Origin: Acidobacteriota bacterium
GTDB lineage: Bacteria > Acidobacteriota > Vicinamibacteria > Fen-336
Direction: 5' to 3'
NCBI GenBank assembly: GCA_036741815.1
Contig: DAINRN010000001.1
Coordinates: forward strand, 1 to 43,009
DNA: 43,009 nucleotides
Below are positions 8,201 to 29,663 of the stretch, in pieces (the first letter of the stretch is position 1; every line of letters begins with the position of its first letter). The position numbers were made by a program, and so were the translations under genes. The notes beneath the pieces were generated by a model that saw only the letters and a program-made list of their open reading frames with translations, made no database searches and had not been told where the DNA came from.

Positions 8201-11200
8201 ACAGGTCGGCCTGGGCGGCTCGCGCCGACGCGATGTCGAGACCGGCCGCCTTCGCCTCATCGGAGGTGCCGAGCCGCCTCGACTCGAGCATCTTCGGGTC
8301 ATTCAGGACGGAGGTCAGGTCGCCGCTCTCGGCCTCGCCGCTCTCGAAGACGCCGGCCTGCTTCGCCTTGAGGAGCGCCTCCCCCAGGCTCATCCTGCCC
8401 TCGTCCACCGCGTCACGTAGTGACTTGGTGGCAGGGTGCTCGGTCATCTGCTTCATGGCGAACCACATGGCGGCCTGGGCCTGGTTGGGGGCGATTCCCC
8501 GCTCGCGGGCCAGGTAGCGGGTCAGGCCATCCGCCAGGCGGTAGGTGTTGTTGTCGCCGGCCAGCCACTCGTCGTACTTGAACCCGAACAGCTTGGCCAT
8601 CCAGGTGTCGATCACGCTGTGGGGGTCGTACTTGAGGTGCGCCATGTTGAGGATGTTGCCGCCGTAGCTGGCAGTTTTCAGGCCCTTCACGTCGGCGAAC
8701 CCGTCCTTGTAGATGGCCCACGCCTTGTCGAGCTTGTCGCCGGACCCCCAAAACTTCGGCGGCCCTCCTGGCACCGTCTCCATCTGGCCGGTGGCGGGGT
8801 TTCTGACTCGCTTGGGCTTGGTGGTCAGCGAGGGGTCGTTCCAGCGGGACGCCTCCCACTTCTTCCCCAGGTTGTCGCGGGTCAAGAGATCGTCGCGCGC
8901 CAGCTCCCGCGCCCAGCGCATGATGGCCAGGGACTGCGCGAAGTTCTCTTCCACGCTGGTCTGCGGGCTGGTGGCCGCGAAGAGGGCCGACCACTCGCGC
9001 ATGTTGTCCTGGCCCACCAGCTTCTCGGCCTCGGTCGCGAAGAGGTGATACCAATGCATCCAGGGCATCCCGATGTCGAGCGCCAGGCGCAGCTCGTCCA
9101 TGGTCCGCGGGAGCCCGTACTGGCTCTTGCCCGTCTCAAATTTGCTCGAGCTGTCGCTCCACCGCTGGGGCGAGAACGGCGCCTCGGGGCGGGGGCCTTG
9201 AGGGAACGCATCGAACATCTCGGTGACACTGGCGTGGGCCACGCCATCAGGGGACGCCAGCGCGCGGGCGCTCATGAAGTCGTTGACGGCCTTCTCCGGA
9301 CCCTCCGGCAGGCCAGGGTCGCCCACCGCCAGCCCCCCCTCGCGAATGCTGGGCACCTTACCGGCCAGGTACGCCTCCACGTCCGGCGCCGCCTGGCCGG
9401 CCAGGCGCTGGAGGTTCCCCACGTTCACCCCTGGGGGGGCGGACTCGGCGGGCGGGCGGAATCGCTCGATCACGTCCCGCCACCCCGCCTCCCAGTCGTC
9501 AGGGAGGGGGACACCGGCGAACTCCGCATGCGCCAGCTCGGCGGTCCGCACCGGTCCGATGGTCTTCCGCAGCCCCTCACCGGCCCGCACCTCGAGCTTG
9601 GCGATGGCCTCCTGGGCCTTGGTGGTGGCCGTGGGGAGCTTGCCGAGCGCCTCCGCGTGCTTCTTCTCGAGGGCCTGCTGGGTGTCGAGGAGCTTCTGCT
9701 GGGCCTTCGCTTCGGCCTCGGCGATCTTCGCTTCCGCGTTCGCGGCGGCCTTCTCGAGGGAGGTGGCCTGCTTCGCGCCCCGCGCATTGGCCACCGCGTG
9801 CTGCGCCGCCTCGTACTTCGCGCGAGCGGCGTCCACGGCGGCGTTGGCCTTCAGCACGTCCGCATGGCGATCGACCGCCGCCAGGGCCTGCTCGGCGGCG
9901 GTGACCGCGGTCTGCGCCTTCACCAGATCGGGGTGGCGTGCCAGAGCCTCGGGCGTGGCGCGCGCCAGCTCATCTGCGCGCAGGGCCGCCTGGTACGCGG
10001 CACGGGTAGCGCCCAGCGCGGCCTCGGCCTCCGCGAGGTTGGCCGGCGCTTCCGTCTTGGTCCCGCCGCGCGCGGCCAGGGTGACCGCCTCGCCGATGCG
10101 CGCGCCGGTGCCACGGGGGAACGCCCCCAGCGCGAAGCCGGCCAGCCCGGCCAGGGTGCCGTATTTCAGGTAGTCGCCGCTGCTGGTGTCCTCGCCGCCG
10201 GTGGTACGCGCCGCCAGGACTCCGCCGCCAGCCCCTTCCACCGCGCCGATCGCGCCCTGACGGGCGATGGTCGCGGCCGTGCGCTCGGCCGCCTGCCCGA
10301 TCCCAAAGGTCGAAGGGGGTAGCAGCGCATTCGCACTGGCGGCCTGCCCGTAGGACGGCTCGAAGCCGGGCAGACGCGACTGGGTGGCGAGTCCGGCGGC
10401 GCGCTCGGGAGCGGTCGCGCGCCCCAGCGGCTGCGTGGCCAGGCCGGCGGCGCGCTCGGCCTCCGTCGGCGCCGCCGCGAAGGGCAGCTCGGGCTGACTG
10501 GGAGTCACCGATTGGCGCACCCGATCGGCGGCCCGCCGGGCTTCCAGCTCGGCCAGGGGGTTCCCCTCCCGCTGCGCCTGGGCCGCCACCTCGTCAAACT
10601 GCGCGGCGGCCCGCGCGGCCAGGGGGCCGCTGGCACCGGCCGGGGGAGCGGCGGTGACCGCCCCCCGCTCGGCCAGGTTCCGTCCCAGGCTCATCCCTGC
10701 CCGGCCGGGGATGTCAGCGGCGCGCTCGAAGGCCCGCCCCACCCCGCCGACCAGGCGGTCGATCATATGGCCGGCCTTGGCGCCAGGGATGAAGTTGGTG
10801 GGGTCCAGCGCGTTCTCCACCACCGCGCCCACGCCGAGCCCCTCCGGCGGGATCAGCTCGAGGGGGCTGAGGGTTCCCCCCTCTGGCACGCGACCCAGGC
10901 CGGGCACCTCGCGCCCCTGGAAGGGCAGGGGGAGCTGGGTGGCGGCGATCTGCTCGGGCGTGGGCTGGTAGCGCAGCGCGGCCTCGGGCTTGGCGTAGAG
11001 GTCCGGCAGCAAGGCCCGCAGGCCGGCGTTCGCGGCCGGTCCGGCACCGGCGATGGCGCCGATGGGGGCCTCGGCGGCGCCCTGGATCACACCCCGCAGG
11101 GGGTCTTGCGGATAGCGGGCGGCCGCGTTCTGGATGGCGCTCACGGGGTTGTCCAGAGGGATGGGCGGCGGCGTGTACGGACCGATCGACGGGAGCTGCC

Positions 11201-12770
11201 AGGTACTGGGCTCGCGCGGGCGGATGGTCTCCACCGGCGGGGTCATGGCTCGTTCGCGCGCCGCGTACTGCTCGCCGAAGTCAAAGCTCGGCAGCACTGG
11301 CGCCGGCTGGGGGTTGGGGAGCGGGTCACTGTACATCCCCGCCGCGCCAGGGACCGCCGGCGGGAAGACTTGCGGTGGGGGTGGCTCGGGCGGAGGCGTG
11401 AGGGAGAGCGGGAGGTCGTAGGAGCTTTGTCCCAGCACGGGGTCCTGCCCCAGGCCGTAGGCATTGGCCCCGATGTTCCGCAGGGGCGGCGTGTAGGTCT
11501 TGAACGGCGAGGGGGCCGAGGGCGGCGGCACGAAGCTCTGCGCGGCCTCGATCGCCTGGCGGTTGATGGCGGCCAGGTCCGGCGCGCCGGCGGCCGTGCG
11601 GCCAGGCTGGGGGGGGAGCTGACTGCCCGGCAGGGGCTCAGGGATGGGCGGCTCGACCCCGTCGGGCAGGATCTTGGCCAGGTAGCGGCGGGTCTCCTCG
11701 AAGGGAGGGACCCCGCCGTACTGCTTCACCGCGCCAGGTCCGGCGTTGTAAGCGGCCAGGGCGGTGGCGGTGGAGCCGTACTGGCGCACGTAGCCGGCCA
11801 TCAGCTTCGCCGCGTAGTCGAGGCTCTCGAAGGGGTCATTGACGTTCACGCCAGGGTGGAACTGGGGCACGATCTGCGCGATGCCCTGCGCGCCGGCACT
11901 CGAGGCGCCGGTGATCTTGAACCCATTCTCTTGCTGGATCTGGCGCTCGAACACGTCGGGGTCGAACCCTGCCCGCTGGGCGGCGCCGCGCGCGTAGGCC
12001 CGCAGCCCCTCGGGGGAGGGGTCCCGCCGCGCGATGCTCTCGCCAGGAGTGAACGGGTTGTCGAGGTACAGCGCATGGGACGGCTGGCCGGCCACTCGCG
12101 CGATCTCCTCAGGGCTCATCCACTCTTTGCCGCCGCGATAGGCCGTCCCTGATGGTCCCACGAAGTAGCGGTCGTCCTCGGGGCGGTAGCCCAGGATCTG
12201 CCAGTAGTGGCCGGCCTCCCCCTGGAGCCCTGGCCCGCCGCTCGAGCTGAGCATGACGGGGTTGCCGTTCTGCACGTCCTGCTGCACCGCGCCCCAGTTG
12301 ACGCCGGCCTCCAGGCGGGTGGGCACCCCCATGGCGGTGAGGAGCTTCTGCTGGGCCTGCGGTCCCGCCTGGCCGCCCTCGGTCCAGCCGGTCTGCCGCG
12401 CCAGCACCAGGGCCTCTTGCAGGCTGGGCGGGCGGCCGGTGGTGGCCGCGAAGGCGATGGCCGCGGCCGGTCCACAGGCCGCCAGGGCCTCGGCGTAGGT
12501 CACGCCTGGCTGGTTGAACTGGCTCTGGCCCAGTGCCATGAGCTGCTCGGGTGAGCGCCCCGCCGTCGAGGATGGAGGACCAGCAGCCGGCGGGGCGCTC
12601 AGAGGCGCCGCAGGGGGCGGAGGGGTGAATTGCACGGGGTTGGCCACCATCTGCTCGAGCGCCGAGGTGTCCGGCGGGCGGTAGCGGTACTCCTCACGGT
12701 TGGCCGAGCGGAGCTGGCGCTGGAGGAGCAGCTCGTTGTGCTCTTCCTCGGTGATGCTAGGGAGCGGCAT
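5223..12770 (-). CDS. giant 2,515-aa multidomain virion/ejection-type protein (papain-like peptidase module + SLT lytic transglycosylase + Ala-rich coiled coil + unassigned domains)
   Basis: Single uninterrupted ORF in the track. Motifs are listed in the two domain features below. It sits in the late operon between the portal and capsid genes. Confidence 0.85.
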   Translation of the reverse strand: MPLPSITEEEHNELLLQRQLRSANREEYRYRPPDTSALEQMVANPVQFTPPPPAAPLSAPPAAGPPSSTAGRSPEQLMALGQSQFNQPGVTYAEALAACGPAAAIAFAATTGRPPSLQEALVLARQTGWTEGGQAGPQAQQKLLTAMGVPTRLEAGVNWGAVQQDVQNGNPVMLSSSGGPGLQGEAGHYWQILGYRPEDDRYFVGPSGTAYRGGKEWMSPEEIARVAGQPSHALYLDNPFTPGESIARRDPSPEGLRAYARGAAQRAGFDPDVFERQIQQENGFKITGASSAGAQGIAQIVPQFHPGVNVNDPFESLDYAAKLMAGYVRQYGSTATALAAYNAGPGAVKQYGGVPPFEETRRYLAKILPDGVEPPIPEPLPGSQLPPQPGRTAAGAPDLAAINRQAIEAAQSFVPPPSAPSPFKTYTPPLRNIGANAYGLGQDPVLGQSSYDLPLSLTPPPEPPPPQVFPPAVPGAAGMYSDPLPNPQPAPVLPSFDFGEQYAARERAMTPPVETIRPREPSTWQLPSIGPYTPPPIPLDNPVSAIQNAAARYPQDPLRGVIQGAAEAPIGAIAGAGPAANAGLRALLPDLYAKPEAALRYQPTPEQIAATQLPLPFQGREVPGLGRVPEGGTLSPLELIPPEGLGVGAVVENALDPTNFIPGAKAGHMIDRLVGGVGRAFERAADIPGRAGMSLGRNLAERGAVTAAPPAGASGPLAARAAAQFDEVAAQAQREGNPLAELEARRAADRVRQSVTPSQPELPFAAAPTEAERAAGLATQPLGRATAPERAAGLATQSRLPGFEPSYGQAASANALLPPSTFGIGQAAERTAATIARQGAIGAVEGAGGGVLAARTTGGEDTSSGDYLKYGTLAGLAGFALGAFPRGTGARIGEAVTLAARGGTKTEAPANLAEAEAALGATRAAYQAALRADELARATPEALARHPDLVKAQTAVTAAEQALAAVDRHADVLKANAAVDAARAKYEAAQHAVANARGAKQATSLEKAAANAEAKIAEAEAKAQQKLLDTQQALEKKHAEALGKLPTATTKAQEAIAKLEVRAGEGLRKTIGPVRTAELAHAEFAGVPLPDDWEAGWRDVIERFRPPAESAPPGVNVGNLQRLAGQAAPDVEAYLAGKVPSIREGGLAVGDPGLPEGPEKAVNDFMSARALASPDGVAHASVTEMFDAFPQGPRPEAPFSPQRWSDSSSKFETGKSQYGLPRTMDELRLALDIGMPWMHWYHLFATEAEKLVGQDNMREWSALFAATSPQTSVEENFAQSLAIMRWARELARDDLLTRDNLGKKWEASRWNDPSLTTKPKRVRNPATGQMETVPGGPPKFWGSGDKLDKAWAIYKDGFADVKGLKTASYGGNILNMAHLKYDPHSVIDTWMAKLFGFKYDEWLAGDNNTYRLADGLTRYLARERGIAPNQAQAAMWFAMKQMTEHPATKSLRDAVDEGRMSLGEALLKAKQAGVFESGEAESGDLTSVLNDPKMLESRRLGTSDEAKAAGLDIASARAAQADLSAPGTEQLRSPGAGSKGAQPLPVGEAAAESGYRSIAERQAPVIAIGSADQAALGLRHAYDLEDGTPAYLMEGIELVHRVVPTDYGLQVVVPGGNRQTTTGIADVILERLPPEVESIGIHVPDVHYGEVGGIQINAQGEQLDALVAALKDAEYLTSTSSERDFVRVVVPEESAAVARQIGELIQTHAPGASWEDYRAWNESRARGDISTGARPAGVPPRAGEPPRVSERGSDHGASGPGGTDAAGAGARPNALGAFAGAGAGQLGTEEETSPEERLVRGLGGAAAGFAGFRAGGFGRRAASAGARAAAAEESPTQAIADAREAFRAAQSAATGQGKSGLPQAELADLAEAVTRYRASEAGGRQGEAVRVLTQMARHPELVADPGARARTLLSSMYKNRKEADFAKYLNEVDLEDPLATARAIKVLGQKNLGDYASWAWYNSLLSAPVGRIRDLISTQAALAAYPLEKAAAVPIDAVIGRFTGKRTIYGGEVAAEYAGMAAALGEGVQDALDVLRHGATVSAAREDLAAVGPEAVQGPFGGALLNAPTRLVKANDALARAQAQKGIIYADAYRLAKQEGLKGDAFAERAATLRVNPTDEMIAHAQDLASEKLWQKTNLVTEKVGHLKELPGMTAILPFHATPINLAKFAMERSPIGFGMLGVQGLRGKATQQMVSEGVARASIGSALMAGMYGLAQQDLITGQTPSDAAERDEWARIGKQPYSIKIGDTWHSYQLLPIAPVLAAGPAIADAVAHKDADSGNAIYTTAALAMARAMTDQPMMQTLAQALDAVHEPEKKGGAFIEGLARSVVPGVVGAAARASDERVRNPEGPWEAILAVIPGANQLVPERQTAFGQPAERAAGMRGVGGLVNPFRSTPEHTNLVERELTRLHLPSEGYRVQPGMVGRTLQIGSEPVRLTREEQATYQGAAGQLTFGLLYQAMNTPEWKGASDEEQRKYVHQVYAKAREQARGQVIPQLQERARGQEERRRERLAG
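11667..12008 (-). other. SLT (soluble lytic transglycosylase) domain within the giant ORF (aa ~255-368)
   Basis: Canonical SLT motifs are present: FERQIQQENGF (catalytic Glu), AQGIAQIVP and ALAAYNAGPGAV. Confidence 0.85.
12051..12548 (-). other. papain-like (C39-type) cysteine peptidase-like module within the giant ORF (aa ~75-240)
   Basis: Candidate nucleophile in AEALAACGPAAAIAFA (Cys99). Candidate His in GEAGHYWQILGY (His188). The spacing and context resemble C39-like peptidase folds. This is pattern recognition only. Confidence 0.4.
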
Positions 12771-14281: not shown

Positions 14282-14687
14282 CAGGGACTCGCATTTCTGA
14301 GGGGCGCTCGGGGGCGATCATCGCATCAGGGAGACCCGCGCGGCCTTCCCGCTCCGCCTTCCGCAAACGGGCGATCAGGTCCTTCTGCTCGTTCTCCGGC
14401 GCGCGGGTCACCAGCTCGGCCACGGCCTCGAGGTCGGGCGTCGGCTGGAGCATACCACGGGGCATGTAGAGCTTCCGCCACCACGCCTCGAACTCGTCCT
14501 GGGTCGGGGCGTTGGCCATGTAGGGCGGGTGCTCGCCGGCAATGCGGTGGTACACATTGTCGATCAAGGGCGGGGTGTCGTTGACCACGGTGTCCACCGC
14601 CCGCTCCCACATATGGGTGGGCCGCAGGCTGGGCTGGCGGGTGTCCTGGGGGGCCAGCGGCTGCTGGGTGGGGGTGGGCTCACGCAT
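14205..14687 (-). CDS. hypothetical protein, 160 aa
   Basis: ORF track. The ATG at 14685-14687 lies inside direct-repeat copy 1. The last ~25 codons overlap the next gene. Confidence 0.6.
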   Translation of the reverse strand: MREPTPTQQPLAPQDTRQPSLRPTHMWERAVDTVVNDTPPLIDNVYHRIAGEHPPYMANAPTQDEFEAWWRKLYMPRGMLQPTPDLEAVAELVTRAPENEQKDLIARLRKAEREGRAGLPDAMIAPERPSEMRVPGGRSSPALRAAAETRPYTFPARPLR

Positions 14688-14717
14688 CAGTGACCATCCC
14701 GCTCATCGAGCGCCTGG
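14657..14717. repeat. direct repeat copy 1 (61 bp) of a gene-junction sequence
   Basis: gcggctgctgggtgggggtgggctcacgcatcagtgaccatcccgctcatcgagcgcctgg. It matches 15056-15115 except for one extra g and one c/a mismatch. Confidence 0.9.
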
Positions 14718-15055: not shown

Positions 15056-15115
15056 GCGGCTGCTGGGTGGGGTGGGCTCACGCATCAGTGACCATCCCGC
15101 TCATAGAGCGCCTGG
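15056..15115. repeat. direct repeat copy 2 (60 bp)
   Basis: gcggctgctgggtggggtgggctcacgcatcagtgaccatcccgctcatagagcgcctgg. It contains the stop of ORF 15085-15282 and a remnant ATGCGTGAGCCCACC start. Confidence 0.9.
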
Positions 15116-19296: not shown

Positions 19297-19565
19297 GACC
19301 ACAGCGCCTCGAAGGGCGGGGGGAGGTCCGGCCGCACGCTCCCTGGCGGCCGCGGTCGGCGGTCGCTGCGCGGCGCCTTGAACACCTCGAGGTGCCCCCA
19401 GCGGATGCAGGCGGCCAGGTAGCCGTCGTAGTAGTCGAGCCGCGAGCTGCGGTCCCGCCGGCAGTAGTCCTCCGCGTACACGTCGAGGAGCTTCTGCTGC
19501 TCCTCCCAGGTCAGCTCTGGCGGCGGCGGCACCGCGTTATGCGCGTGCTTCTTGGGTTCCGACAT
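19293..19565 (-). CDS. hypothetical protein, 90 aa
   Basis: Track frame 19293-19841. The ATG at 19563-19565 follows GGGAGGGGA. Sequence: MSEPKKHAHNAVPPPPELTWEEQQKLLDVYAEDYC... Confidence 0.55.
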   Translation of the reverse strand: MSEPKKHAHNAVPPPPELTWEEQQKLLDVYAEDYCRRDRSSRLDYYDGYLAACIRWGHLEVFKAPRSDRRPRPPGSVRPDLPPPFEALWS

Positions 19566-20301
19566 CCATCCCCTCCCTCGCGGCGGCCAGGCGCCGCCGG
19601 CTACTGGCCACGTAGTCTGCACTCTGGTCAAATCCCCGCCCCCGGCGCCCCAGCCGCTCCGCCACCACCACCGTGGTGCCGCTCCCCACGAAGGGATCGA
19701 CCACCAGATCGCCAGGGAACGACAGCAGGGTGATGAGCCGCCGCGCCAGCTCCTCGGGGAAGGCGGCGGGGTGGCGCTCCCACGCGTGGCTCTCGCTGGG
19801 GATGCGCCACAGCCCATTCGTCCACGCCAGCCACTCCTCATGCGTCAGGTCGCTCTCGCTGGCCAGGCGCCCCTGGCCCCAGCGCCCCTTGCTGAACAGC
19901 GCGATCATCTCCACCCGCGCGATCACGTGGGGCGCGCTGGCGCTGTCCACGCTGCCCCGTGCGGTCGTCTTGGTGATGTGGTCGTCCTCCCACACGATCG
20001 ACGAGCGGTAGGTCCAGCCGGCCGCGAGCGCCTCCCGCACCGCTTCCGCGTAGGTGGGGCGGAACCCGCCCCTGGTGGTGTCGAGCGGGACGTTCAGCGC
20101 CAGGCGCCCCCGCTCCCTGGTCACGCGGAACGCCTCGCGCAGCCAGGCGTACAAGTGCTCCATCCAGGCCAGCGCGTCATCGTCCTCCCCGCCGTAGTCC
20201 TTGTCGAGCCCATAGGGCGGCGAGGTCAGGATCAGGTCGGCCACCTCGGAGTCCAGCGGCAGGCAGGCCGCGTCGGCCACCTCGAGGCAGGCGTCGTTCA
20301 T
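19537..20301 (-). CDS. DNA methyltransferase, N6-adenine/N4-cytosine type (SPPY motif; motif IV precedes motif I)
   Basis: Motif IV is DLILTSPPYGL and motif I is VVDPFVGSGTT. The start is the ATG at 20299-20301 (ATGA with the upstream stop), not the track start at 20505. Confidence 0.8.
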   Translation of the reverse strand: MNDACLEVADAACLPLDSEVADLILTSPPYGLDKDYGGEDDDALAWMEHLYAWLREAFRVTRERGRLALNVPLDTTRGGFRPTYAEAVREALAAGWTYRSSIVWEDDHITKTTARGSVDSASAPHVIARVEMIALFSKGRWGQGRLASESDLTHEEWLAWTNGLWRIPSESHAWERHPAAFPEELARRLITLLSFPGDLVVDPFVGSGTTVVVAERLGRRGRGFDQSADYVASSRRRLAAAREGMDVGTQEARA

Positions 20302-20925: not shown

Positions 20926-21113
20926 CCGCTCCGCTCCCGCGCCCGCGCCCGCGCCTCGAGCACCCGATCGCTGGCGCGCACCACGTCCAGATAGCCCTCC
21001 CGAATGCGGATCGACAGATCCGACTGCTCGTCCAGCAGCCCGTGCAGCACCCGCCGCGCCGTCTCGAGCCCCTGCTCGGCCTCCTCCAACGTCAGCTCGG
21101 TCGTCTCGTTCAT
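20922..21113 (-). CDS. hypothetical protein, 63 aa
   Basis: ORF track. It is coupled by ATGA overlaps to TerL upstream and HNH downstream. Confidence 0.55.
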   Translation of the reverse strand: MNETTELTLEEAEQGLETARRVLHGLLDEQSDLSIRIREGYLDVVRASDRVLEARARARERSG

Positions 21114-22774
21114 CCGATCCTCACGAATTGGTCTTCCACGCGGGGGCGCTTGCCGTTCGTCCAGCTCCCCTGGATCACGTGGTCACTGGGGAGCGTCAGC
21201 GCCAGCGCCAGGGCGCCGCTGGAGGCATCCACGAGGTCGTCGTGGGCGCCGCGCGGGAAGGCCAGCAGCTCCGCCAGGTAGTGCGGGAACCACGGCGCGG
21301 TGCGGTCCGCGTAGAGCATCCCCTGGTCGCCACGGTTCGCGACGAGCATGGCCCGCGTGGTCTTGTCGATCGTCTCGGCCACCGCGAGCATGCCCACGGG
21401 GTGGCCACCCCTGGCGCAGAGGGTGATCACCCGACGGACGAGGTCTTGCGTGGCCAGGCTGCGCGTGTAGGCCCCCTTCCACACGCCGACGTAGTGGGGG
21501 CGCACGGTGGTGACGTAGCGGGCGAGCGCGCCGGCCAGGCCCCGCTCGTCGTCGGCGCGGGCATCCACCTGGCCGTCCTCGGTCCGCACCTCTTCCACAT
21601 GCGCCCACCAGGCGTGCAGGATGAAGGCGTCCTGGGTCTGACGGTCCAGCCCGATGGTCACCGCCGCCGTGTAGTCGGCCTCCTCGCGGGCACTGAACGC
21701 GAGGTCGAAGAAGCTCACCAGCAGCAGGCGGTCGCGCCGGCTCTTCCCCGTGGCGTCGGGGGTGCGGAACCCCGCCGGCAGGGGCTTCAGCAGGCCGTCG
21801 TGGAACAGCGCACCCTTGCGGGGGACCGGGCGCTGTTGGAACTGGGCCGCCGCCGCGTAGGCGCCGAGCTGGGCCTCCAGCGCAATCACCTGCTCGAGGG
21901 GGAAGCGCACCTCGTGCAGCAGCTCGCCCTCGAGGTGACGCGGGTCCGCATAGATCGGACAGGTGTCGTGGGGGTCCGGCAGAGCTTCCGACGGCTCCTC
22001 ACCGGCCAGGGGGAACACCCGCTGCTCGTAGCGCATGGGCAGGTTGAGGGTGTGCCACTCGCCGGTGGCCTTCAAGACGCCGGCCAGGTCCTGGGCGTGG
22101 ACCCGCTGCTGGATCACGACCTCGACCGTGGTGGCGGGATCGTTCCCGCGCGTAGACATCGTCTCGGCCCACCACTGGACGGTGGACTCGCGCACCAGCT
22201 CCGATTCGCCCTGGCGCACGTTGTGCGGGTCGTCGCAGACCAGCCGGTGGCCGCCTTCGCCGGTACCGGTGCCGCCAGGGCTGGTCGCGATGCGGTGGCC
22301 GCCGGCGGTGTTCTCATACTTCTGCTTCAGGTTCTGGTCGCCCTGGAACTCCCAGCCGATGGCTCGGCAGCCGCGATACCAGGGCGTCAGCATCAGGCGC
22401 CTCGCGCGGACGGCGTCACGGGTGGCCAGGGTCTCGGCGTAGCTGGCGCACAGCCACTGGGTGTACGGAGCCCACAGCCACTCCCAGCTCGGCCAGAAGA
22501 CGGAGACCACCAGGGACTTGCCGCTCCGAGGAGGCACGGTAATGAGCAGCTTGTGCAGCTCGCCTCGGCTGCACGCCTCGAGATGCTCGGCCAGGCAATC
22601 AAGGTGCCACCCCGCCTGGAAGGTCGCCCCTGGCTGGGCCAGTATCCACGCCTGCGGCAGGTACTCCCGCAAGGTCAAGGGCGGGTCCGCCTGCACCGGC
22701 GGCCGCTCGGGCTTCCTCGAGCTGGGGGAAGCTGGCGGTGGCAACAATACGGGCGGCACGGTCCGATAGGTCAT
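21110..22774 (-). CDS. terL: terminase large subunit
   Basis: Walker A-like ITVPPRSGKS and Walker B-like HRLVCDDPHN are present. Nuclease-domain patterns FFDLAFSAREEADYTAAV and AHDDLVDASSGAL are also present. I set the start to the ATG at 22772-22774; a GTG at 22696 is an alternative. The 724-aa track version has a frame-artefact N-terminus. Confidence 0.9.
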   Translation of the reverse strand: MTYRTVPPVLLPPPASPSSRKPERPPVQADPPLTLREYLPQAWILAQPGATFQAGWHLDCLAEHLEACSRGELHKLLITVPPRSGKSLVVSVFWPSWEWLWAPYTQWLCASYAETLATRDAVRARRLMLTPWYRGCRAIGWEFQGDQNLKQKYENTAGGHRIATSPGGTGTGEGGHRLVCDDPHNVRQGESELVRESTVQWWAETMSTRGNDPATTVEVVIQQRVHAQDLAGVLKATGEWHTLNLPMRYEQRVFPLAGEEPSEALPDPHDTCPIYADPRHLEGELLHEVRFPLEQVIALEAQLGAYAAAAQFQQRPVPRKGALFHDGLLKPLPAGFRTPDATGKSRRDRLLLVSFFDLAFSAREEADYTAAVTIGLDRQTQDAFILHAWWAHVEEVRTEDGQVDARADDERGLAGALARYVTTVRPHYVGVWKGAYTRSLATQDLVRRVITLCARGGHPVGMLAVAETIDKTTRAMLVANRGDQGMLYADRTAPWFPHYLAELLAFPRGAHDDLVDASSGALALALTLPSDHVIQGSWTNGKRPRVEDQFVRIG

Positions 22775-23108
22775 TGTGGGCGTGGAGAACGAACTCAGGG
22801 GGCTGAAGGCGGAGCCATTCGGGATCTGCCAGGAGGTCCGCCTCAGCGGTGATGGCTCGGAAGACGGCGGCAACGTAAGCGGCAATCCACTCTCCCAGGT
22901 CGCGGCTCTCACCGGCTGGCCGTGGGTCCGGCCGCTCGATCGGCACCCGTCCAGCCCGTGGATAGGTCCCGTTCGCGAGGGCCTGGTCGCGCCAGCTCTG
23001 CACCGTGCCGCGCGCCACGTGGTGCTTGGCGGCCACCTGGCGCACCGAGAGCCCCAGCGCCAGATCGGCGACCACCTTCGAGCGCAGCTCCACGGGATAC
23101 ACCGGCAC
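22599..23108 (-). CDS. terS: putative terminase small subunit (N-terminal HTH)
   Basis: GTG at 23106-23108 follows GAGGAGG. The HTH is LSVRQVAAKHHVARGTVQSWR. It lies immediately upstream of terL. The 3' ~100-175 nt overlap terL and lose third-position G/C. Confidence 0.55.
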   Translation of the reverse strand: MPVYPVELRSKVVADLALGLSVRQVAAKHHVARGTVQSWRDQALANGTYPRAGRVPIERPDPRPAGESRDLGEWIAAYVAAVFRAITAEADLLADPEWLRLQPPEFVLHAHNDLSDRAARIVATASFPQLEEARAAAGAGGPALDLAGVPAAGVDTGPARGDLPGGVAP

Positions 23109-23135
23109 GGGCAGCCTCCTCGGACATCAGCCAAC

Positions 23136-23169
23136 GGGGCGCCTGGGTTGACGAGACCCAGGCCGCCCC
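23136..23169 (-). promoter_or_regulatory. GC-rich hairpin in the 176-nt intergenic region upstream of terS (possible cos/pac-associated or terminator-like element)
   Basis: ggggcgcctgggt-tgacgag-acccaggccgcccc gives a ~13-bp stem with one bulge. There is no U-tract. Confidence 0.3.
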
Positions 23170-23284
23170 TGGCCGGTAACCCAAGAGCCTCAGGCGACCT
23201 ACAGGTAGCACCCCTCAGTGGACCCCGCAAGCCGGTCAGGCCCCGGCCATCATAGCATGGGCCATGGCCGGCCAGGCCGGTCAC

Positions 23285-23645: not shown

Positions 23646-24023
23646 TTACCAGAGGCGCCACCAGGGACGTGGCCGGTGACTCGCCACCTCGAGCTGGTAG
23701 GTCAGCACCGCCACCTGGCCGGCCAGGTCCGCGATCTCGGCCGCCTGGCGGTCGATCAGCTCGGTGAGGGGGCGCACCTCTCGCGCCAGGGTGGCCACCA
23801 CCAGCTCGACGCCGAGCGCGCGCAGCTCCCCCTCGCCCTTGGGCACCGCGATCTCCACCGGCCCTCCCGCGCGGGTCTGACGCTTGGGATAGCGGCCGGC
23901 CACCACCCGCTTGTCGAGGGTCCGCTCGCTGATGCCGAGCCGCACCGCCGCCTCACTCTTCCTCAGCCACTCGGTCGTTTCTTCTGACCCCTCCGAAGGT
24001 CTCGCCTCGCTGGTCTCGTGCAT
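23646..24023 (-). CDS. MerR/excisionase-type HTH DNA-binding protein with a C-terminal coiled coil, 125 aa (first gene after the terminator)
   Basis: WLRKSEAAVRLGISERTLDKRVVAGRYP is an HTH_17-like motif. It could be a regulator, an Xis-like protein or a second TerS-like protein. Confidence 0.55.
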   Translation of the reverse strand: MHETSEARPSEGSEETTEWLRKSEAAVRLGISERTLDKRVVAGRYPKRQTRAGGPVEIAVPKGEGELRALGVELVVATLAREVRPLTELIDRQAAEIADLAGQVAVLTYQLEVASHRPRPWWRLW

Positions 24024-24071
24024 GAAAAAGCCCCCCTTCCGTCGCTCGTCAGAGCGTAGACGGAAGGGGGG
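24024..24071 (-). terminator. intrinsic terminator at the early/late operon boundary
   Basis: Perfect 13-bp stem: CCCCCCTTCCGTC (24031-24043) pairs with GACGGAAGGGGGG (24059-24071). On the minus strand it is followed by CUUUUUC, which runs directly into the ATG at 24023. Confidence 0.75.
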
Positions 24072-24098
24072 CGGGTCTGCCAGTCACAGGGAGGTCAC

Positions 24099-24290
24099 TT
24101 AGCGGAAGGGGCCAATCTCCCGTCGGATCATCGCCCGTCGCTCCAGCTCCTCCTTGACGGTGGGCAGTCGCCCGTGGTCGTGCGTGAAGGCGTTCACCCA
24201 CGCCTCGAGGAGCTGCTGGCGGAAGCGGCGGGTCTCCCAGCCGCGCCTCCCCCGCTCCTGATTGGATGGGTCGGGAATCCGCCGGGGCAT
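24099..24290 (-). CDS. Arg-rich 63-aa protein, last gene of the early operon
   Basis: Track frame 24099-24602, with an internal ATG at 24288-24290. Sequence: MPRRIPDPSNQERGRRGWETRRFRQQLLEAW... Confidence 0.55.
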   Translation of the reverse strand: MPRRIPDPSNQERGRRGWETRRFRQQLLEAWVNAFTHDHGRLPTVKEELERRAMIRREIGPFR

Positions 24291-24520
24291 CAGAGGTTCT
24301 CCACGGCCCACTGCTGGGCGCCCACGAGGCTGGAGTCGTCGTGCAGGTAGGCCAGGTCGTGCGGGCGCAGCACCAGGAACGTGTTGACCACCCCCGCGTG
24401 GCGCTCGCCCGTGATGAGCCCCACGCACTGACCGTCCTTCCAGACGGTTTGCGCGTGGGGGGTGTCTCCCATCACGGGGTCGTGCCAGGTGCGGCGGCGG
24501 GAGTCGATCGTGGTGCTCAT
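24290..24520 (-). CDS. hypothetical protein, 76 aa
   Basis: ORF track; ATGA coupling at 24517-24520. Confidence 0.6.
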   Translation of the reverse strand: MSTTIDSRRRTWHDPVMGDTPHAQTVWKDGQCVGLITGERHAGVVNTFLVLRPHDLAYLHDDSSLVGAQQWAVENL

Positions 24521-24777
24521 CCTCGGCCTCCTTGGGTTTTCGGCTGCGCGGGTCGCAGCACCAGCTCGCGGGAGCGGGGCGCCTCGCGGGCCTCCACCGC
24601 ACGGGCGATGCGCTCGAGCAGCCGTCGCTGGGCGATGATCTCCTGCACCTGGCGCTCCAGCAGCTCCCGCACCACCGCGATCAGGGCCTCGGCCTGCGGG
24701 TCCAGCTCCACCGGCGGGGGCGGGGTGTCCAGGGCGGCGTACAACTCCTCGAGCTGCTCGTTCAAGGGCTCCGTCAT
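24517..24777 (-). CDS. hypothetical helical protein, 86 aa
   Basis: Track frame 24517-24969. The internal ATG at 24775-24777 forms an ATGA with the upstream stop. Confidence 0.55.
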   Translation of the reverse strand: MTEPLNEQLEELYAALDTPPPPVELDPQAEALIAVVRELLERQVQEIIAQRRLLERIARAVEAREAPRSRELVLRPAQPKTQGGRG

Positions 24778-25085
24778 CAGCTCCTCGCTTTCTGGCCGGT
24801 CACGTAGGTGAAGTGGTCGGCGGCCTTCCGCAGATGGCCCTCGGCCTGGATCATCTCGAACTCGGCATCGCCGCTCACCAGGCGCTCGGGGTGGCGGTAG
24901 TGGTAGACGGCCGCCAGGTCGCTGGCCGCCCGCAGGCTGTTGCGGGCGGCCTCGAGGAGCTGGCGCCACTCCTCGCGCTGCACCTCCTGGCTCGCGCTGA
25001 ACACGTCTTCCTGGGCGGCCTGGGCGTCAGCCCACGCGTCCAGGTCGTCGTCGCTGAGGGGGACGGGATTATGCAGGTAGCTCAT
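24777..25085 (-). CDS. hypothetical protein, 102 aa
   Basis: The ATG at 25083-25085 follows GGAGTGAATCCC. The track start (GTG 25094) lies inside that SD. Confidence 0.6.
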   Translation of the reverse strand: MSYLHNPVPLSDDDLDAWADAQAAQEDVFSASQEVQREEWRQLLEAARNSLRAASDLAAVYHYRHPERLVSGDAEFEMIQAEGHLRKAADHFTYVTGQKARS

Positions 25086-25098
25086 GGGATTCACTCCT

Positions 25099-25263
25099 CT
25101 AGCGGGTCGCGGACTTGATGGAATGCTCGGTCAGCCAGTCACGAAAGATGCGGGTCACCAGGGAGCCGATCGGCACCCCCTGGCGGATGGCCTCGGCGCG
25201 GATCTCGCGCCACACCCCCTGGTCAACCCCGCGAATGTTGGCGCGCTCGGTGGTCGCTTGCAT
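25099..25263 (-). CDS. ribbon-helix-helix-like small DNA-binding protein, 54 aa
   Basis: MQATTERANIRGVDQGVWREIRAEAIRQGVPIGSLVTRIFRDWL has a beta-alpha-alpha pattern. It starts 1 nt after the stop of the Mom-like gene. Confidence 0.5.
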   Translation of the reverse strand: MQATTERANIRGVDQGVWREIRAEAIRQGVPIGSLVTRIFRDWLTEHSIKSATR

Positions 25264-25264
25264 G

Positions 25265-26047
25265 TCAATTCCTCTCCTCATCGGTGCGCTTCGGGTAGGG
25301 GAGCGGCGCGAAGGCCGCCAGGTCGCGAGCCAGCGCCTTGCGCTCGCGGCGGTTCCCCAGCGTGAAGGCGTAGCGGTGGTTGCCGCCGTGGCGGAGCTTC
25401 CGCAGCTCGCCGGCCCCCTCGAGCTGGGCCTCGGCGTAGGCATGGCCGCGCTGGCCGGTGCCGGCCTTGGCGGCGGTGCGGTCGTTGAACACCGAGCCGT
25501 CGGCCTTCAGGCGCAGGATGCGGGGGCGGCTGCGCCCCAGGTAGGTGGCGTTGGTCGCCTGGTAGATGGTGCCCACGTGGCCGGCGAAGAGGCGTTCGCC
25601 CCGAGCGTTGGTGCGGGCCACGGGATCGCTGAAGGAGACGATGCCCCGCACCCCCTCGTCGGCGGCCTGCTCGAACAGCGCCGCCAGGAACCACGACTCG
25701 GCGTTGGCCGGCACGCGGTTCAGCAGCACGAAGCGCCCCAGCTCGAGCGACTCGCGGTAGGGGGCGAGCTGGGGGAAGACGCCGGTCAGCACCTCCTTGC
25801 GGACGGGGATGGACAGCACCGCCACCCCGACCAGCTCCGGCCCCTCGTAGAGGCCGTAGCGCAGGCGGGAGGCGGGGTAGCTGGTCGAGTAGTGGTGGGT
25901 GCGGACGAAGGACTTGGCCAGGGCCTCGGGGACGGGGGCCACCGCGTACTCGGCGCGGTTGAAGCCCCCCTCAGAGATGGGGCGCCACGAGTGCGCGCCC
26001 TCGAGCCACCGCTGGCAGACCGTGGTGTCGGCAGGGGTCGTGCTCAT
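25265..26047 (-). CDS. GNAT-fold, Mom-like candidate DNA-modification protein, 260 aa
   Basis: FVRTHHYSTSYP, LELGRFVLL..VPANAESWFL, IVSFSDP and GHVGTIYQATNATYLGRS match my recollection of the Mom family of adenine-modifying acyltransferase-fold proteins. The start is the ATG at 26045-26047 (ATGA). Confidence 0.45.
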   Translation of the reverse strand: MSTTPADTTVCQRWLEGAHSWRPISEGGFNRAEYAVAPVPEALAKSFVRTHHYSTSYPASRLRYGLYEGPELVGVAVLSIPVRKEVLTGVFPQLAPYRESLELGRFVLLNRVPANAESWFLAALFEQAADEGVRGIVSFSDPVARTNARGERLFAGHVGTIYQATNATYLGRSRPRILRLKADGSVFNDRTAAKAGTGQRGHAYAEAQLEGAGELRKLRHGGNHRYAFTLGNRRERKALARDLAAFAPLPYPKRTDEERN

Positions 26048-26289
26048 CAGGCCGTCCACGCCTTCTGGAACCCGAACACCTTGGCCAGGCGATCGGCCTC
26101 CTGCTGGAGCAGGGCGCGGAACTCGTCCTGCTCGGCCTCCGTCATCTGCTCGGCCAGGTCGGCGTGCTGCTCGGTCCAGTACCCGAGCGCCACGCTCACG
26201 CCGTGCATCAGGATGTCCTGGGCCTCCTGGCGAGCGGCCCGCTTCGACGGGAAGGGGAAGGTCGGGGTGAGGTCCTGGGCGGCGGCCAT
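26047..26289 (-). CDS. hypothetical protein, 80 aa
   Basis: ORF track; coupled at both ends. Confidence 0.6.
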   Translation of the reverse strand: MAAAQDLTPTFPFPSKRAARQEAQDILMHGVSVALGYWTEQHADLAEQMTEAEQDEFRALLQQEADRLAKVFGFQKAWTA

Positions 26290-26546
26290 CAGAGCGCCTT
26301 CCCGTAGGCCGCGCGCTCTTGCTCGAGGAAGGCCAGGTCGGCCTGCTCCTGCTCCTGGCGCGCGGCGCGCAGGGTCTCGCCCCTGCGCAAGATGGTGATC
26401 AGGGCATCCTGATCACCGGTGATGTAGGGCTCAGCCCTCACGAGGTCCCACAGGATCTCCATGAGGGCCGCCTTGGAGAACTTGTCGAGCACCGCGCGCG
26501 GGGACGGGGGCACCAGGGAGGCGGGACGCTTGCGGTGGCCGGCCAT
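26289..26546 (-). CDS. hypothetical protein, 85 aa
   Basis: Track frame 26289-26846. The ATG at 26544-26546 shares one nt with the upstream TGA. Confidence 0.55.
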   Translation of the reverse strand: MAGHRKRPASLVPPSPRAVLDKFSKAALMEILWDLVRAEPYITGDQDALITILRRGETLRAARQEQEQADLAFLEQERAAYGKAL

Positions 26547-27220
26547 CAGTTGACCCCCTGCGCAGCCTTCGCCGGCTGATGCTTGCGGATCTGGCCGTAC
26601 TTGGTGACGGCGACGGTCTTGGCGCAGGCGGGGCAGCGCACGTAGTGGGAGCGGCCGCTGACCGTGGCCGGCTGGTCCGAGCCCACGCAGTAGTCCCGCT
26701 TGATGCCGAGGGTCCACTCGAGCGGCGCGGACGGGAAGCAGACGCTGCACAGGCGGGGGCCGTGCGCCTCGACCGCGTCGGCCTCGGTCAGGCCGGAGAG
26801 CTGGGGCAACCAGCCGAACTGGGTCGTCCAGCGGCAGGTGCCGCACGTGGTGGTGGCGTGGATGTGGCCCCCGTCGGAGCTGGTCACCAGGAAGAACCGC
26901 TGCCAGCCGGTGTACTGCTGGCCCAGCTCCTTGAGCTGCGCGACCAGGGCCTGGTGGGCCTGGCGCAGGACCGGCAGCATGCTGACGGCGTCGGCATGAC
27001 GGCCAACCTCGCGCAGGATGCGGGGGGTGGCGACGATGGCCTCCTCGTCGGTGAGCTTCCAGGGCTGGCCCTTCGTCCAGGTGTCGCGGCGGTCACCGGC
27101 GGCCGAGTGAACGCGGTCCATCATGCGTCCAATCGCCGCGTAGGCATGCTGCACCTCGTCGGACTTGTTGGCGATCGCGGTGTCGATCAGGACCTCGGGG
27201 CGCTCGGTGGAAACGGTCAA
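26546..27220 (-). CDS. Cys-rich hypothetical protein, 224 aa
   Basis: The start is re-set to the TTG at 27218-27220. It aligns with the ATG of the paralogous leader at 29579; both proteins begin MTVS. Motifs: GGHIHATTTCGTCRW, CSVCFPSAP, CPAC. Confidence 0.65.
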   Translation of the reverse strand: MTVSTERPEVLIDTAIANKSDEVQHAYAAIGRMMDRVHSAAGDRRDTWTKGQPWKLTDEEAIVATPRILREVGRHADAVSMLPVLRQAHQALVAQLKELGQQYTGWQRFFLVTSSDGGHIHATTTCGTCRWTTQFGWLPQLSGLTEADAVEAHGPRLCSVCFPSAPLEWTLGIKRDYCVGSDQPATVSGRSHYVRCPACAKTVAVTKYGQIRKHQPAKAAQGVN

Positions 27221-27271
27221 GGGATTCACTCCTTAGCGGGGGGCCTCGCCGACCCAGCTACCGCACCCCTC

Positions 27272-27301
27272 ATTGTACACCACTGGCACCACTGGCGCCA
27301 A
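27272..27301 (-). promoter_or_regulatory. sigma70-like promoter, copy A (TTGGCG-18 nt-TACAAT)
   Basis: The -10 TACAAT is at 27272-27277 and the -35 TTGGCG is at 27296-27301. It is part of a ~95-bp cassette duplicated at 29560-29658. Confidence 0.55.
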
Positions 27302-27310
27302 GGGCACAAC

Positions 27311-27350
27311 GAAGGGGCCGGCCTCCTGGCAGGGAGGAGCCGGCCCCTTC
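27311..27350 (-). terminator. strong hairpin terminator candidate downstream of ORF 27364-27579
   Basis: GAAGGGGCCGGCTCCT...AGGAGGCCGGCCCCTTC gives a 16-bp stem with one bulge. It is followed by GTTGTG, a weak U-tract. It lies immediately upstream of promoter copy A. Confidence 0.55.
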
Positions 27351-27363
27351 GCGGGCGGGCAGT

Positions 27364-27579
27364 TTACTGCGGGTCGCTGAGGTGGCGGTAGCTCGCGCGG
27401 AACCCCTCGGGGGTGCTGAAGTGGTCGAGCCCCTTCCGCCCCAGGTAGTGGACCTCCCCCTCGGAGACCTCCATCACGAACACCTCCTGCCCGCTGGCCT
27501 TGGCCACCCACAGGGAGTGCCGCGCGATCGGCCGGTCTTGCGTCCACTCGAGGAAGCTGAGCTGCTCCAGGTCAGTCAT
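27364..27579 (-). CDS. hypothetical protein, 71 aa
   Basis: Track frame 27364-27960, with an internal ATG at 27577-27579. Sequence: MTDLEQLSFLEWTQDRPIARHSLWVAKASGQEVFVMEV... Confidence 0.55.
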   Translation of the reverse strand: MTDLEQLSFLEWTQDRPIARHSLWVAKASGQEVFVMEVSEGEVHYLGRKGLDHFSTPEGFRASYRHLSDPQ

Positions 27580-28096
27580 CCGACCCCTCCTCCGCCGCCT
27601 CGCGCTCCCGCTCGAGCCGATGGGCCACCGACCGCCAGTGCAGCACCAGCAGCGCCTGGGCGTGCTCGCTGTGGTCCAGCCACTGCTGCACATCCCAGCC
27701 GGTGAGGCGCCAGGCGCTGCCGGTGAGGTGCCCGACCACCTCGGCCTTGAAGGTCTGGTGCAGCAGCCAGGCCAGGGACGGCTCCGCGTGCCAGGTCCTG
27801 CCCGCCGCCCGCACGGCCGCCGGCTCCTCGCCGAAGAAGTCGGCCAGGATGGACAGCGCCAGATCGGCGGGGCCGCTGCCAGGGTAACCCCACTCCATGC
27901 CCGTGGGACTGTGCAGCTCGACGTGGGGGAGGGGGTGGACGTGAACCCCGCCGGTCTCACCGGTCATCACCTCGGCCTCCTGGGGGTAGGGGTCGCCCCC
28001 TCGGTGCTGAGCGACCAGGGTGTTCCACTCCGCAGTGGAGAGGCGGCGCCCGCGATACCAGACCCGCTGCTGGTGGGAGGTCAACCCGGCCGTCAT
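27572..28096 (-). CDS. conserved hypothetical protein, 174 aa (WGYPGSGPADLALSIL motif)
   Basis: Track frame 27572-28522. The ATG at 28094-28096 forms an ATGA with the upstream stop. The motif recalls an uncharacterised phage/bacterial family. Confidence 0.6.
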   Translation of the reverse strand: MTAGLTSHQQRVWYRGRRLSTAEWNTLVAQHRGGDPYPQEAEVMTGETGGVHVHPLPHVELHSPTGMEWGYPGSGPADLALSILADFFGEEPAAVRAAGRTWHAEPSLAWLLHQTFKAEVVGHLTGSAWRLTGWDVQQWLDHSEHAQALLVLHWRSVAHRLEREREAAEEGSDD

Positions 28097-28317: not shown

Positions 28318-29579
28318 CGAGCCACCTCCACCAGCCAGCCGCTCTCGAGGCAGGCCGGCAGCTCGGCCGCCGGCAGCGCCAGGTACATGCCCGAGACGTA
28401 GCGGCCAGCCTGGCTGTTCCGCAGGTACTGGGTGGGGCAGACGACGCGGAAGAGGGGGAACTCCACCCCGTCCGAAGCGCGGCGGACGTAGGGGGTGGCC
28501 TCCCGCCGCACCCCGTCGCCATTCGGGTCCGAGTAGTCGTAGTTGGCCGGCGCCGTGGTGTAGATCACCAGGGAGCTGTCGGCGACGGGGGCCGCGTGGC
28601 CGGCGGCGTCCAGGGCGGCGCGGTCGAAGGGCTCCGCTCGGCCGGCCAGGGTCGCCACGCCGATGCGACGGGCGTACCGCTCGACCAGCCAGCACGCCTG
28701 GAGCGGGATCTCGGTCACCACTCCCCCCTCGAGCTGGGCGTTGGTGCGGGTCTCGCGAACCCAGGCCACGCCCCCCTCCCCGTAGCGCAGCACCTCGGTA
28801 ACGGTGAGGTCCATGAGGAGGTTGTCGGGGTCGTTCGCGAAGGTCGTCACGGTGAAGCGGGTGCCCACCGGCAGGGGCGCGGTCGGCGGGGTCGGGGCCT
28901 GGCGCTCGAAGCGGGCCACGTAGTCGGACTCGTACTGGGCCTCGAGGTCACCGCCGGCGGTGAGGCAGACCGGCCAGATGGTGCTGGCCGCGTAGTCGCC
29001 CTCGGGGCCGACATCATGGCGAGCGTCGGCGATGGCCTCGGCCAGGGTGTCGAAGCGATCGCCGGTGACCACGTCGCCGTTCGCCAACTCAGGGGCGGTC
29101 TCGAACCCGACGACGGGCATGTCATAGGCGGTCTCCCACCAGGGGCGGGCGTCCGACGCGCCCTCAGGCTCGGCAAGGGGGGCCTCGGGCTCAGGGTCGA
29201 TCGGGCCATACTTGGCGGTCAGCTCCTGCTGGCGCACGACCTCGCGCTGCCACACCGCCAGGCGCTCATCCCAGCTCGTGAAGTGGGGGGCCTCGCCGTA
29301 GCGGGGGAGGCGGTACGCGCGGTAGTTGCCGGCGCCCATGGCCTCGACCACCAGGCCGGCGGCCACCGCCGCGTCGGTCAGCTCGGCCTGGCGAACGCCG
29401 GTGGCCTTCACGTTGATGATGGCATCGCCGTAGTGGAAGGAGCGCACGGTGCGGCCGGCGCGATTGATCATGGTGCCCGCCTCGGCCACCCGCTCGGTGC
29501 GGACGGTGAACTCGTTGCGACGGAAGCCGGCCGCCTGGAGGGCGGTGATCGCGCGCTGGGCCTGGTCGGAAACGGTCAT
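28314..29579 (-). CDS. hypothetical protein, 421 aa
   Basis: The ATG at 29577-29579 follows GGAGTGAATCCC. The track start at 29630 lies inside the promoter -10 box. No motif recognised. Confidence 0.7.
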   Translation of the reverse strand: MTVSDQAQRAITALQAAGFRRNEFTVRTERVAEAGTMINRAGRTVRSFHYGDAIINVKATGVRQAELTDAAVAAGLVVEAMGAGNYRAYRLPRYGEAPHFTSWDERLAVWQREVVRQQELTAKYGPIDPEPEAPLAEPEGASDARPWWETAYDMPVVGFETAPELANGDVVTGDRFDTLAEAIADARHDVGPEGDYAASTIWPVCLTAGGDLEAQYESDYVARFERQAPTPPTAPLPVGTRFTVTTFANDPDNLLMDLTVTEVLRYGEGGVAWVRETRTNAQLEGGVVTEIPLQACWLVERYARRIGVATLAGRAEPFDRAALDAAGHAAPVADSSLVIYTTAPANYDYSDPNGDGVRREATPYVRRASDGVEFPLFRVVCPTQYLRNSQAGRYVSGMYLALPAAELPACLESGWLVEVAR

Positions 29580-29628
29580 GGGATTCACTCCAGAGGCGGG
29601 GGGCCTCGCCGACCCCTCCCCGCCCCTC

Positions 29629-29658
29629 ATTGTACACCATCGGCACCAGTGGCGCCAA
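29629..29658 (-). promoter_or_regulatory. sigma70-like promoter, copy B (TTGGCG-18 nt-TACAAT)
   Basis: The -10 is at 29629-29634 and the -35 is at 29653-29658. It is ~85% identical to copy A over about 95 bp, including the leader and the first 4 codons. Confidence 0.55.
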
Positions 29659-29663
29659 GGTGC

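Follow-up and report, generated by a model that had tools for sequence, protein, structure and literature searches.

A Mom-family protein and a small neighboring RHH protein encoded on a phage-like contig of an Acidobacteriota bacterium

The stretch of DNA analyzed here (the window) is one whole contig of 43,009 bp, which belongs to an 84%-complete genome bin made up of 748 contigs. The contig has a GC content of ~70%, carries nearly all of its genes on the minus strand, and is phage-like, resembling the genome of a tailed phage, or of a prophage, from a high-GC bacterium. It encodes a large terminase (21110–23284; PHROG 38, 6e-61), a protein that may be a small terminase or an HTH protein (23646–24023), a major capsid protein (2148–3167) and a 2,515-aa ORF (5223–12770, minus strand) in which an SLT transglycosylase domain is joined by a weak C39-like peptidase domain. 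Also present are an IstB/DnaC-like ATPase, a DUF6551 protein, a 3D-domain protein and an Xre-type regulator. The IstB-like ATPase and the DUF6551 protein raised the possibility of a Mu-like transposable phage; no transposase was seen on the contig, and no terminal repeat was found on it. A 47-nt direct repeat occurs at 14671–14717 and 15069–15115 (98% identity, 398 nt apart), each copy at a gene boundary. On the contig that carries the closest relative of the locus with genomic context (locus L014, Logan contig SRR26290502), the counterpart of the 2,515-aa protein has 3,023 aa and C39_2, Glucosaminidase and ddrB-ParB domains.

At the center of this analysis are two adjacent genes, one for a 260-aa protein of the Mom family and one for a 54-aa RHH-like protein. 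Their positions and those of the surrounding features are given in Table 1.

Table 1. Features at and around the mom–RHH locus, in window coordinates
Feature	Coordinates	Strand	Evidence or remarks
N6/N4 DNA methyltransferase, TSPPY motif	19537..20301	-	PF01555, 3.7e-36; PHROG 67, 7.5e-42
Likely terminator: strong hairpin followed by CUUUUUC	24031..24071	-	Fold -44.3 kcal/mol, z -5.4
Gene for 102-aa acidic protein of helical composition	24777..25085	-	Follows the RHH gene closely; without match in Pfam, PHROG, PADLOC or PDB
RHH gene, 54 aa (P0002)	25099..25263	-	Begins one base (25264) after the mom stop
mom-family gene, 260 aa (P0001)	25265..26047	-	PF25680, PHROG 1384, 8bv8, Foldseek, hhalign
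80-aa upstream gene	26047..26289	-	Its stop and the mom ATG overlap; family and PDB searches gave no significant match
Sigma-70-like promoter (TTGGCG, 18 nt, TACAAT)	27272..27301	-	Only one upstream of the mom operon

Both genes had been proposed from the DNA letters, and both ORFs are real: they lie on the minus strand, 1 nt apart, and the larger one contains every motif that had been quoted for it (THHYSTSYP, LELGRFVLLNRVPANAESWFL, IVSFSDP and GHVGTIYQATNATYLG). The mom ORF begins with the ATG at 26047 and ends with a stop codon at 25265–25267. An alternative, in-frame GTG at 26059 would give a product of 264 aa, which is the length of entry P0003 in the protein collection. The start codon of mom and the stop codon of the 80-aa gene upstream overlap in the sequence ATGA, while at the 3′ end the last mom codons contain the Shine-Dalgarno-like run GAGGAGAGGA of the RHH gene. 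The RHH gene would be co-transcribed, and is probably translationally coupled, with mom. The third-position GC of the RHH ORF (0.89, next to 0.96 for mom and ~0.71 for the region) supports real coding. The family matches of the 260-aa protein are far beyond chance.

The 260-aa protein has the GNAT fold and is an unremarkable member of the Mom family, which is already established. It matches Pfam PF25680 with 101.6 bits (cut-off 27.1; 5.9e-29) over profile positions 2–202 of 202, and PHROG 1384, 'Mom-like DNA modification protein', at 2.3e-35. Its sole PDB sequence match is phage Mu Mom (8bv8, 3.3e-7), and its profile aligns to Mu Mom in hhalign at 97.6% probability (E 2.6e-12). The AlphaFold2 model, for which 51 relatives were used (pLDDT 90.9), likewise has 8bv8 as its top Foldseek match (E 3.2e-12, TM 0.69 normalized to target length), followed by generic GNAT acetyltransferases with E-values of 2.5e-5 or weaker. 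Among Pfam acetyltransferase families, none other than Mom matches the protein at E <= 1, and in NCBIfam only XF1762_fam is hit, below threshold (19.4 bits vs a cut-off of 50). PADLOC returns nothing for Mom, the RHH protein or neighboring proteins. The original prediction favored a Mom-family protein over a tRNA-acetylating GNAT toxin and suggested a profile search against models of both; the Pfam search returns Mom as the only matching family, and the choice is borne out by the sequence and structure matches as well as by the functional residues discussed below.

What this protein does can be approached through its best-studied relative. PMC13219725 describes how Mu Mom transfers glycine from Gly-tRNAGly to the N6 of adenine in dsDNA; a rearrangement of the glycyl adduct on the base then yields 6-NcmdA, and this modification blocks restriction. 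The original prediction had presented Mom as an acyltransferase-fold enzyme that methylcarbamoylates adenine to evade restriction; methylcarbamoylation is the older description, and Mu Mom is now shown to use Gly-tRNAGly (PMC13219725). We extracted the sequence of Mu Mom from the record of the Mu genome and used MAFFT to align it with the query and with members of its clade. Mutations that cripple Mu Mom affect H48, Y49, R101, S114, D139 and Y149 (PMC7261163), which are H58, Y59, R111, S124, D149 and Y159 in the 241-aa numbering of PMC13219725, where R111 and S124 are called essential. All six align to identical residues in the query (H52, Y53, R105, S118, D141 and Y162, respectively). H52, Y53, R105, D141 and Y162 are invariant in 51 clade members, at least 90% of which also have S118. 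Mu's essential HTH-like insertion (~175–209) likewise has a counterpart in the alignment, with predicted helices at 189–197 and 202–212, and the two proteins further have in common a C-terminal PYPK motif and a phage-encoded origin.

With the active-site residues and the fold retained, Mu-type glycyl transfer is most likely the function of the 260-aa protein, both the shared Gly-tRNAGly reaction and the anti-restriction role being drawn by analogy with Mu Mom. By homology, the phage enzyme would take glycine from the host's Gly-tRNAGly, as the contig contains no tRNA genes (and hence no phage tRNAGly) and the donor would be a host tRNA. The glycine would then be transferred to the N6 of adenines flipped out of double-stranded DNA, and the adduct would rearrange to N6-carbamoylmethyl-adenine (6-NcmdA), which is expected to shield the phage DNA from restriction enzymes.

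The resemblance to Mu Mom has its limits, as identity between the two proteins is only ~24–30%. Unlike Mu Mom, the query and its clade carry an 11-residue insertion after the catalytic Asp, exactly at the position of the essential Mu R151, and the equivalent of this arginine is uncertain: HMMER pairs it with query R152, MAFFT and hhalign leave it unaligned, and the clade-invariant R145 is another candidate. The query also has a clade-specific N-terminal hairpin with the motif CQRW..R.HSWR..SEGGF, which is missing from Mu, and Mu W48 (dimerization) and W181 are not conserved, being replaced by Ala and Val. Given the ambiguous R151 counterpart, the two lost tryptophans and the low identity, the donor aminoacyl-tRNA and the target sequence could differ from those of Mu. 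Together with the clade-specific motif, these features are also what would speak for a Mom-family enzyme with altered chemistry, which would use another aminoacyl-tRNA or acyl donor, or another nucleic-acid target, and produce a hypermodification other than 6-NcmdA. [quoted passage not shown]

Proteins of this kind are widespread. A protein search finds 998 Mom relatives at E <= 0.001, of which all 120 listed carry PF25680; the best non-self match has 68% identity, and some relatives bear the NCBI name 'Mom family adenine methylcarbamoylation protein' (e.g. in Micromonospora). In deposited phage genomes, tblastn finds Mom in 164 records, every one below 60% identity (26–35% for the 40 records listed), and many of the records are annotated 'Mom-like DNA modification protein' or 'acetyltransferase'. 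A megablast of 24000–28000 against the phage collection gave no match. According to scans of genomes and viral contigs, the clade occurs mainly in uncultured viral contigs and in the genomes of Actinomycetota, Chloroflexota, Myxococcota and Acidobacteriota. The Mom proteins from Actinomycetota, Chloroflexota and viral contigs are 48–68% identical to the query over their full length and have the same invariant residues and insertion. They lie mostly in prophage-like or viral contigs, but they have other neighbors, and none of the loci compared below has the RHH gene downstream of mom.

The second protein is far more elusive. The 54-aa sequence by itself has no match in Pfam, PHROG or NCBIfam, and a word-indexed protein search returned only the query. 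An exhaustive phmmer search of 1.84 billion representatives retrieves 65 relatives at E <= 1e-3, mostly 45–60 aa long, with the common pattern IRGVD..LWR..RAEAV.RGV..G.L...I...WL. FitA-like_RHH (PF22513) is matched by 26 of 57 relatives, while others match RHH_4, ParG, RHH_10 or RHH_1. The family profile matches ParG (1p94, 1.8e-4) and a CopG-family protein (9kkd, 3.1e-4). In a model of the monomer, an extended N-terminus precedes two helices (15–28 and 32–46), with ~8 residues remaining after the second; Foldseek ranks StnY, Arc and CopG first for this model, with non-significant E-values. An RHH fold of the 54-aa protein is therefore supported through its remote relatives and profile matches and, together with the two-helix model, these agree with its earlier description as RHH-like. 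The protein resembles the minimal RHH proteins Arc, CopG and ParG in having a short predicted N-terminal strand (unstructured in the monomer model) and two helices within ~45–55 aa, but unlike them its own sequence has no direct Pfam match. It would be a minimal DNA-binding protein in the size class of Arc, CopG and ParG.

The arrangement of signals around the two genes suggests how they might be expressed. The only sigma-70-like promoter in 23900–27500 is on the minus strand, reading from 27301 to 27272, and is preceded by a strong hairpin. With this single promoter and the terminator listed in Table 1, mom and the RHH gene fall into one operon of about nine small genes. In the proposed arrangement, mom would be part of an accessory operon of about nine genes, opened by the promoter at 27301–27272 and closed by the terminator at ~24031–24071, just upstream of the terminase genes. 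This differs from Mu, as mom is located within an accessory operon in the middle of the genome, ahead of the terminase genes, and not at the genome end, and as no Com-type zinc-finger gene overlaps its 5′ end. A Com-like zinc-finger gene upstream of mom was ruled out, as the 80-aa protein has no cysteines. The 102-aa gene after the RHH gene has the RBS/start cassette GGAGTGAATCCCATG. This type of cassette (GGAGTGAATCCC plus a start codon) is found three times on the contig, at 25082–25106 (the gene right after the RHH gene), 27217–27241 and 29576–29600.

The promoter spacer is filled by two tandem copies of a 9-bp sequence, GCCAGTGGT (27279–27296, minus strand). A duplicated copy of the promoter is found at 29618–29660, with a related copy of the repeat at 29636–29653 (minus strand); in all, there are three matches to the repeat vs 0.1 expected by chance. 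These repeats may serve as a candidate operator for some regulator. Direct repeats of such kind are typical RHH operators, so the RHH protein could autoregulate the operon through them, although the link between the protein and the repeats is conjectural and we think it improbable. A bolder combination, to which we give equally little weight, would have the Mom enzymes of this clade install an undescribed hypermodification, using a donor or target different from that of Mu, while the RHH protein may gate expression via the tandem promoter repeats. The idea of a different donor or target stems from the 11-residue insertion at the R151 position, the distinct N-terminal hairpin and the lack of a Mu-type dimer tryptophan.

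The close spacing of the two genes invites the question whether they work together. A functional pair could take two forms: the RHH protein would act as a repressor or timer of the operon and limit production of the potentially cytotoxic Mom to the times when it is needed, or it would bind Mom directly. Mu limits Mom through the Com and C controls, to which such a pair would be analogous in purpose, not in mechanism. The 1-nt gap, the ribosome-binding site of the RHH gene within the mom 3′ end, the shared operon and the tandem 9-bp repeats in the promoter spacer that recur at the second promoter copy would all fit a pair, as would the finding that the closest relative has a different small, putatively zinc-binding protein at the same position. 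If the two genes formed a module, however, it should recur, and the related loci show otherwise. No RHH copy was found beside mom by tblastn in 15 related loci. We then collected 160 loci that encode Mom relatives, of which 80 are genomic and 80 are viral, together with flanks of 3 kb, and compared an HMM of the RHH family with all of their six-frame ORFs; none of the 160 gave a match, the window itself being the only one. The ORFs immediately downstream of Mom relatives on the same strand are highly diverse, and a Pfam scan of 61 small ones detects an RHH family in none, and a few HTH and zinc-binding domains. The closest relative (L014, with a Mom 67% identical to the query) has instead a gene for a 57-aa CxxC..HxxC protein (10791–10964) that overlaps the mom stop. 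Mom and the RHH protein as a module, as the original prediction had it, are therefore not upheld: absence from the 160 loci and the 61 small neighbors, and a different gene in the closest relative, make the adjacency lineage-specific. With the link between repeats and RHH protein a conjecture as well, we deem a functional pair improbable. The putative zinc-binding protein of L014 recalls the small zinc-finger protein Com of Mu, but is encoded downstream, not upstream, of mom.

A GNAT fold beside an RHH fold also brings to mind the toxin–antitoxin systems of the TacAT, AtaRT and KacAT type, in which a GNAT-fold protein neighbors an RHH protein. In this class, the antitoxin gene comes first. For the window, such a reading would make Mom the toxin and the RHH protein its antitoxin or, in a variant, the RHH protein the antitoxin of the downstream 102-aa gene. 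Many relatives of the RHH protein match FitA-like_RHH, and the chromosomal ones in a 301-genome sample of the phylum are antitoxins, each followed by a PIN-, Fic- or MazF-like gene. These antitoxins, however, have 76–95 aa and a toxin-binding tail, whereas the RHH protein ends ~8 residues past its second helix, at 54 aa, and has no toxin-neutralizing tail. The gene order in the window (GNAT, then RHH) is the reverse of the antitoxin-first order among the RHH relatives. On the toxin side, only Mom is matched among acetyltransferase families at E <= 1, PADLOC has no matches, and the Mom-family protein has 260 aa vs ~170 aa for the toxins; the 102-aa protein is acidic, and no toxin family matches it. 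Nor is the pairing conserved. The toxin–antitoxin reading is thus rejected, with family, size and gene order all against it, and we consider it extremely improbable. The original prediction had judged this class unfit from the size and the gene order, and the family assignment and the missing tail point the same way. Mom and TacT both handle Gly-tRNAGly (PMC13219725). The same genome bin does encode a conventional RHH antitoxin of 86 aa with a PIN-like gene behind it (G000:C190:6325-6447, L179), which is unrelated to the phage contig.

The RHH protein is therefore most likely neither a cofactor of Mom nor an antitoxin. Its gene is independent and lineage-specific, and the protein is most likely a small transcriptional regulator, a role that we assign from its fold and size. 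For the locus as a whole, we are fairly confident that it combines a Mom-family enzyme for glycyl transfer, belonging to a phage or prophage, with an independent, lineage-specific RHH regulator.

This adds one more high-GC phage to a large Mom family that is already cataloged. The useful outcome is a negative one, in that the RHH protein stands outside any conserved hypermodification module and the two genes do not form a toxin–antitoxin system; for both reasons, routine annotation suffices for this locus. The clade itself is common among the Actinomycetota and Chloroflexota of soil and groundwater. No characterized member of it was found in the Mom literature cited here (PMC7261163 and PMC13219725), and a single representative could reasonably serve to test whether momylation that depends on Gly-tRNA also occurs outside the Mu-like enzymes.

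Mom would not be the only DNA-modifying enzyme of this phage. The separate SPPY methyltransferase that had been noticed on the contig matches PF01555 and PHROG 67 and is confirmed as a second DNA-modification gene (Table 1). This suggests that the phage protects its DNA in two ways, with a Mom-type adenine hypermodification and with a separate N6/N4 methyltransferase. Several loci of Mom relatives have a gene with DNA-methyltransferase motifs (FAGGGG or DPPYG type) immediately next to mom, upstream in L009, L010 and L013 and downstream in L101 and L170, which hints at a recurrent association of Mom with methyltransferases.
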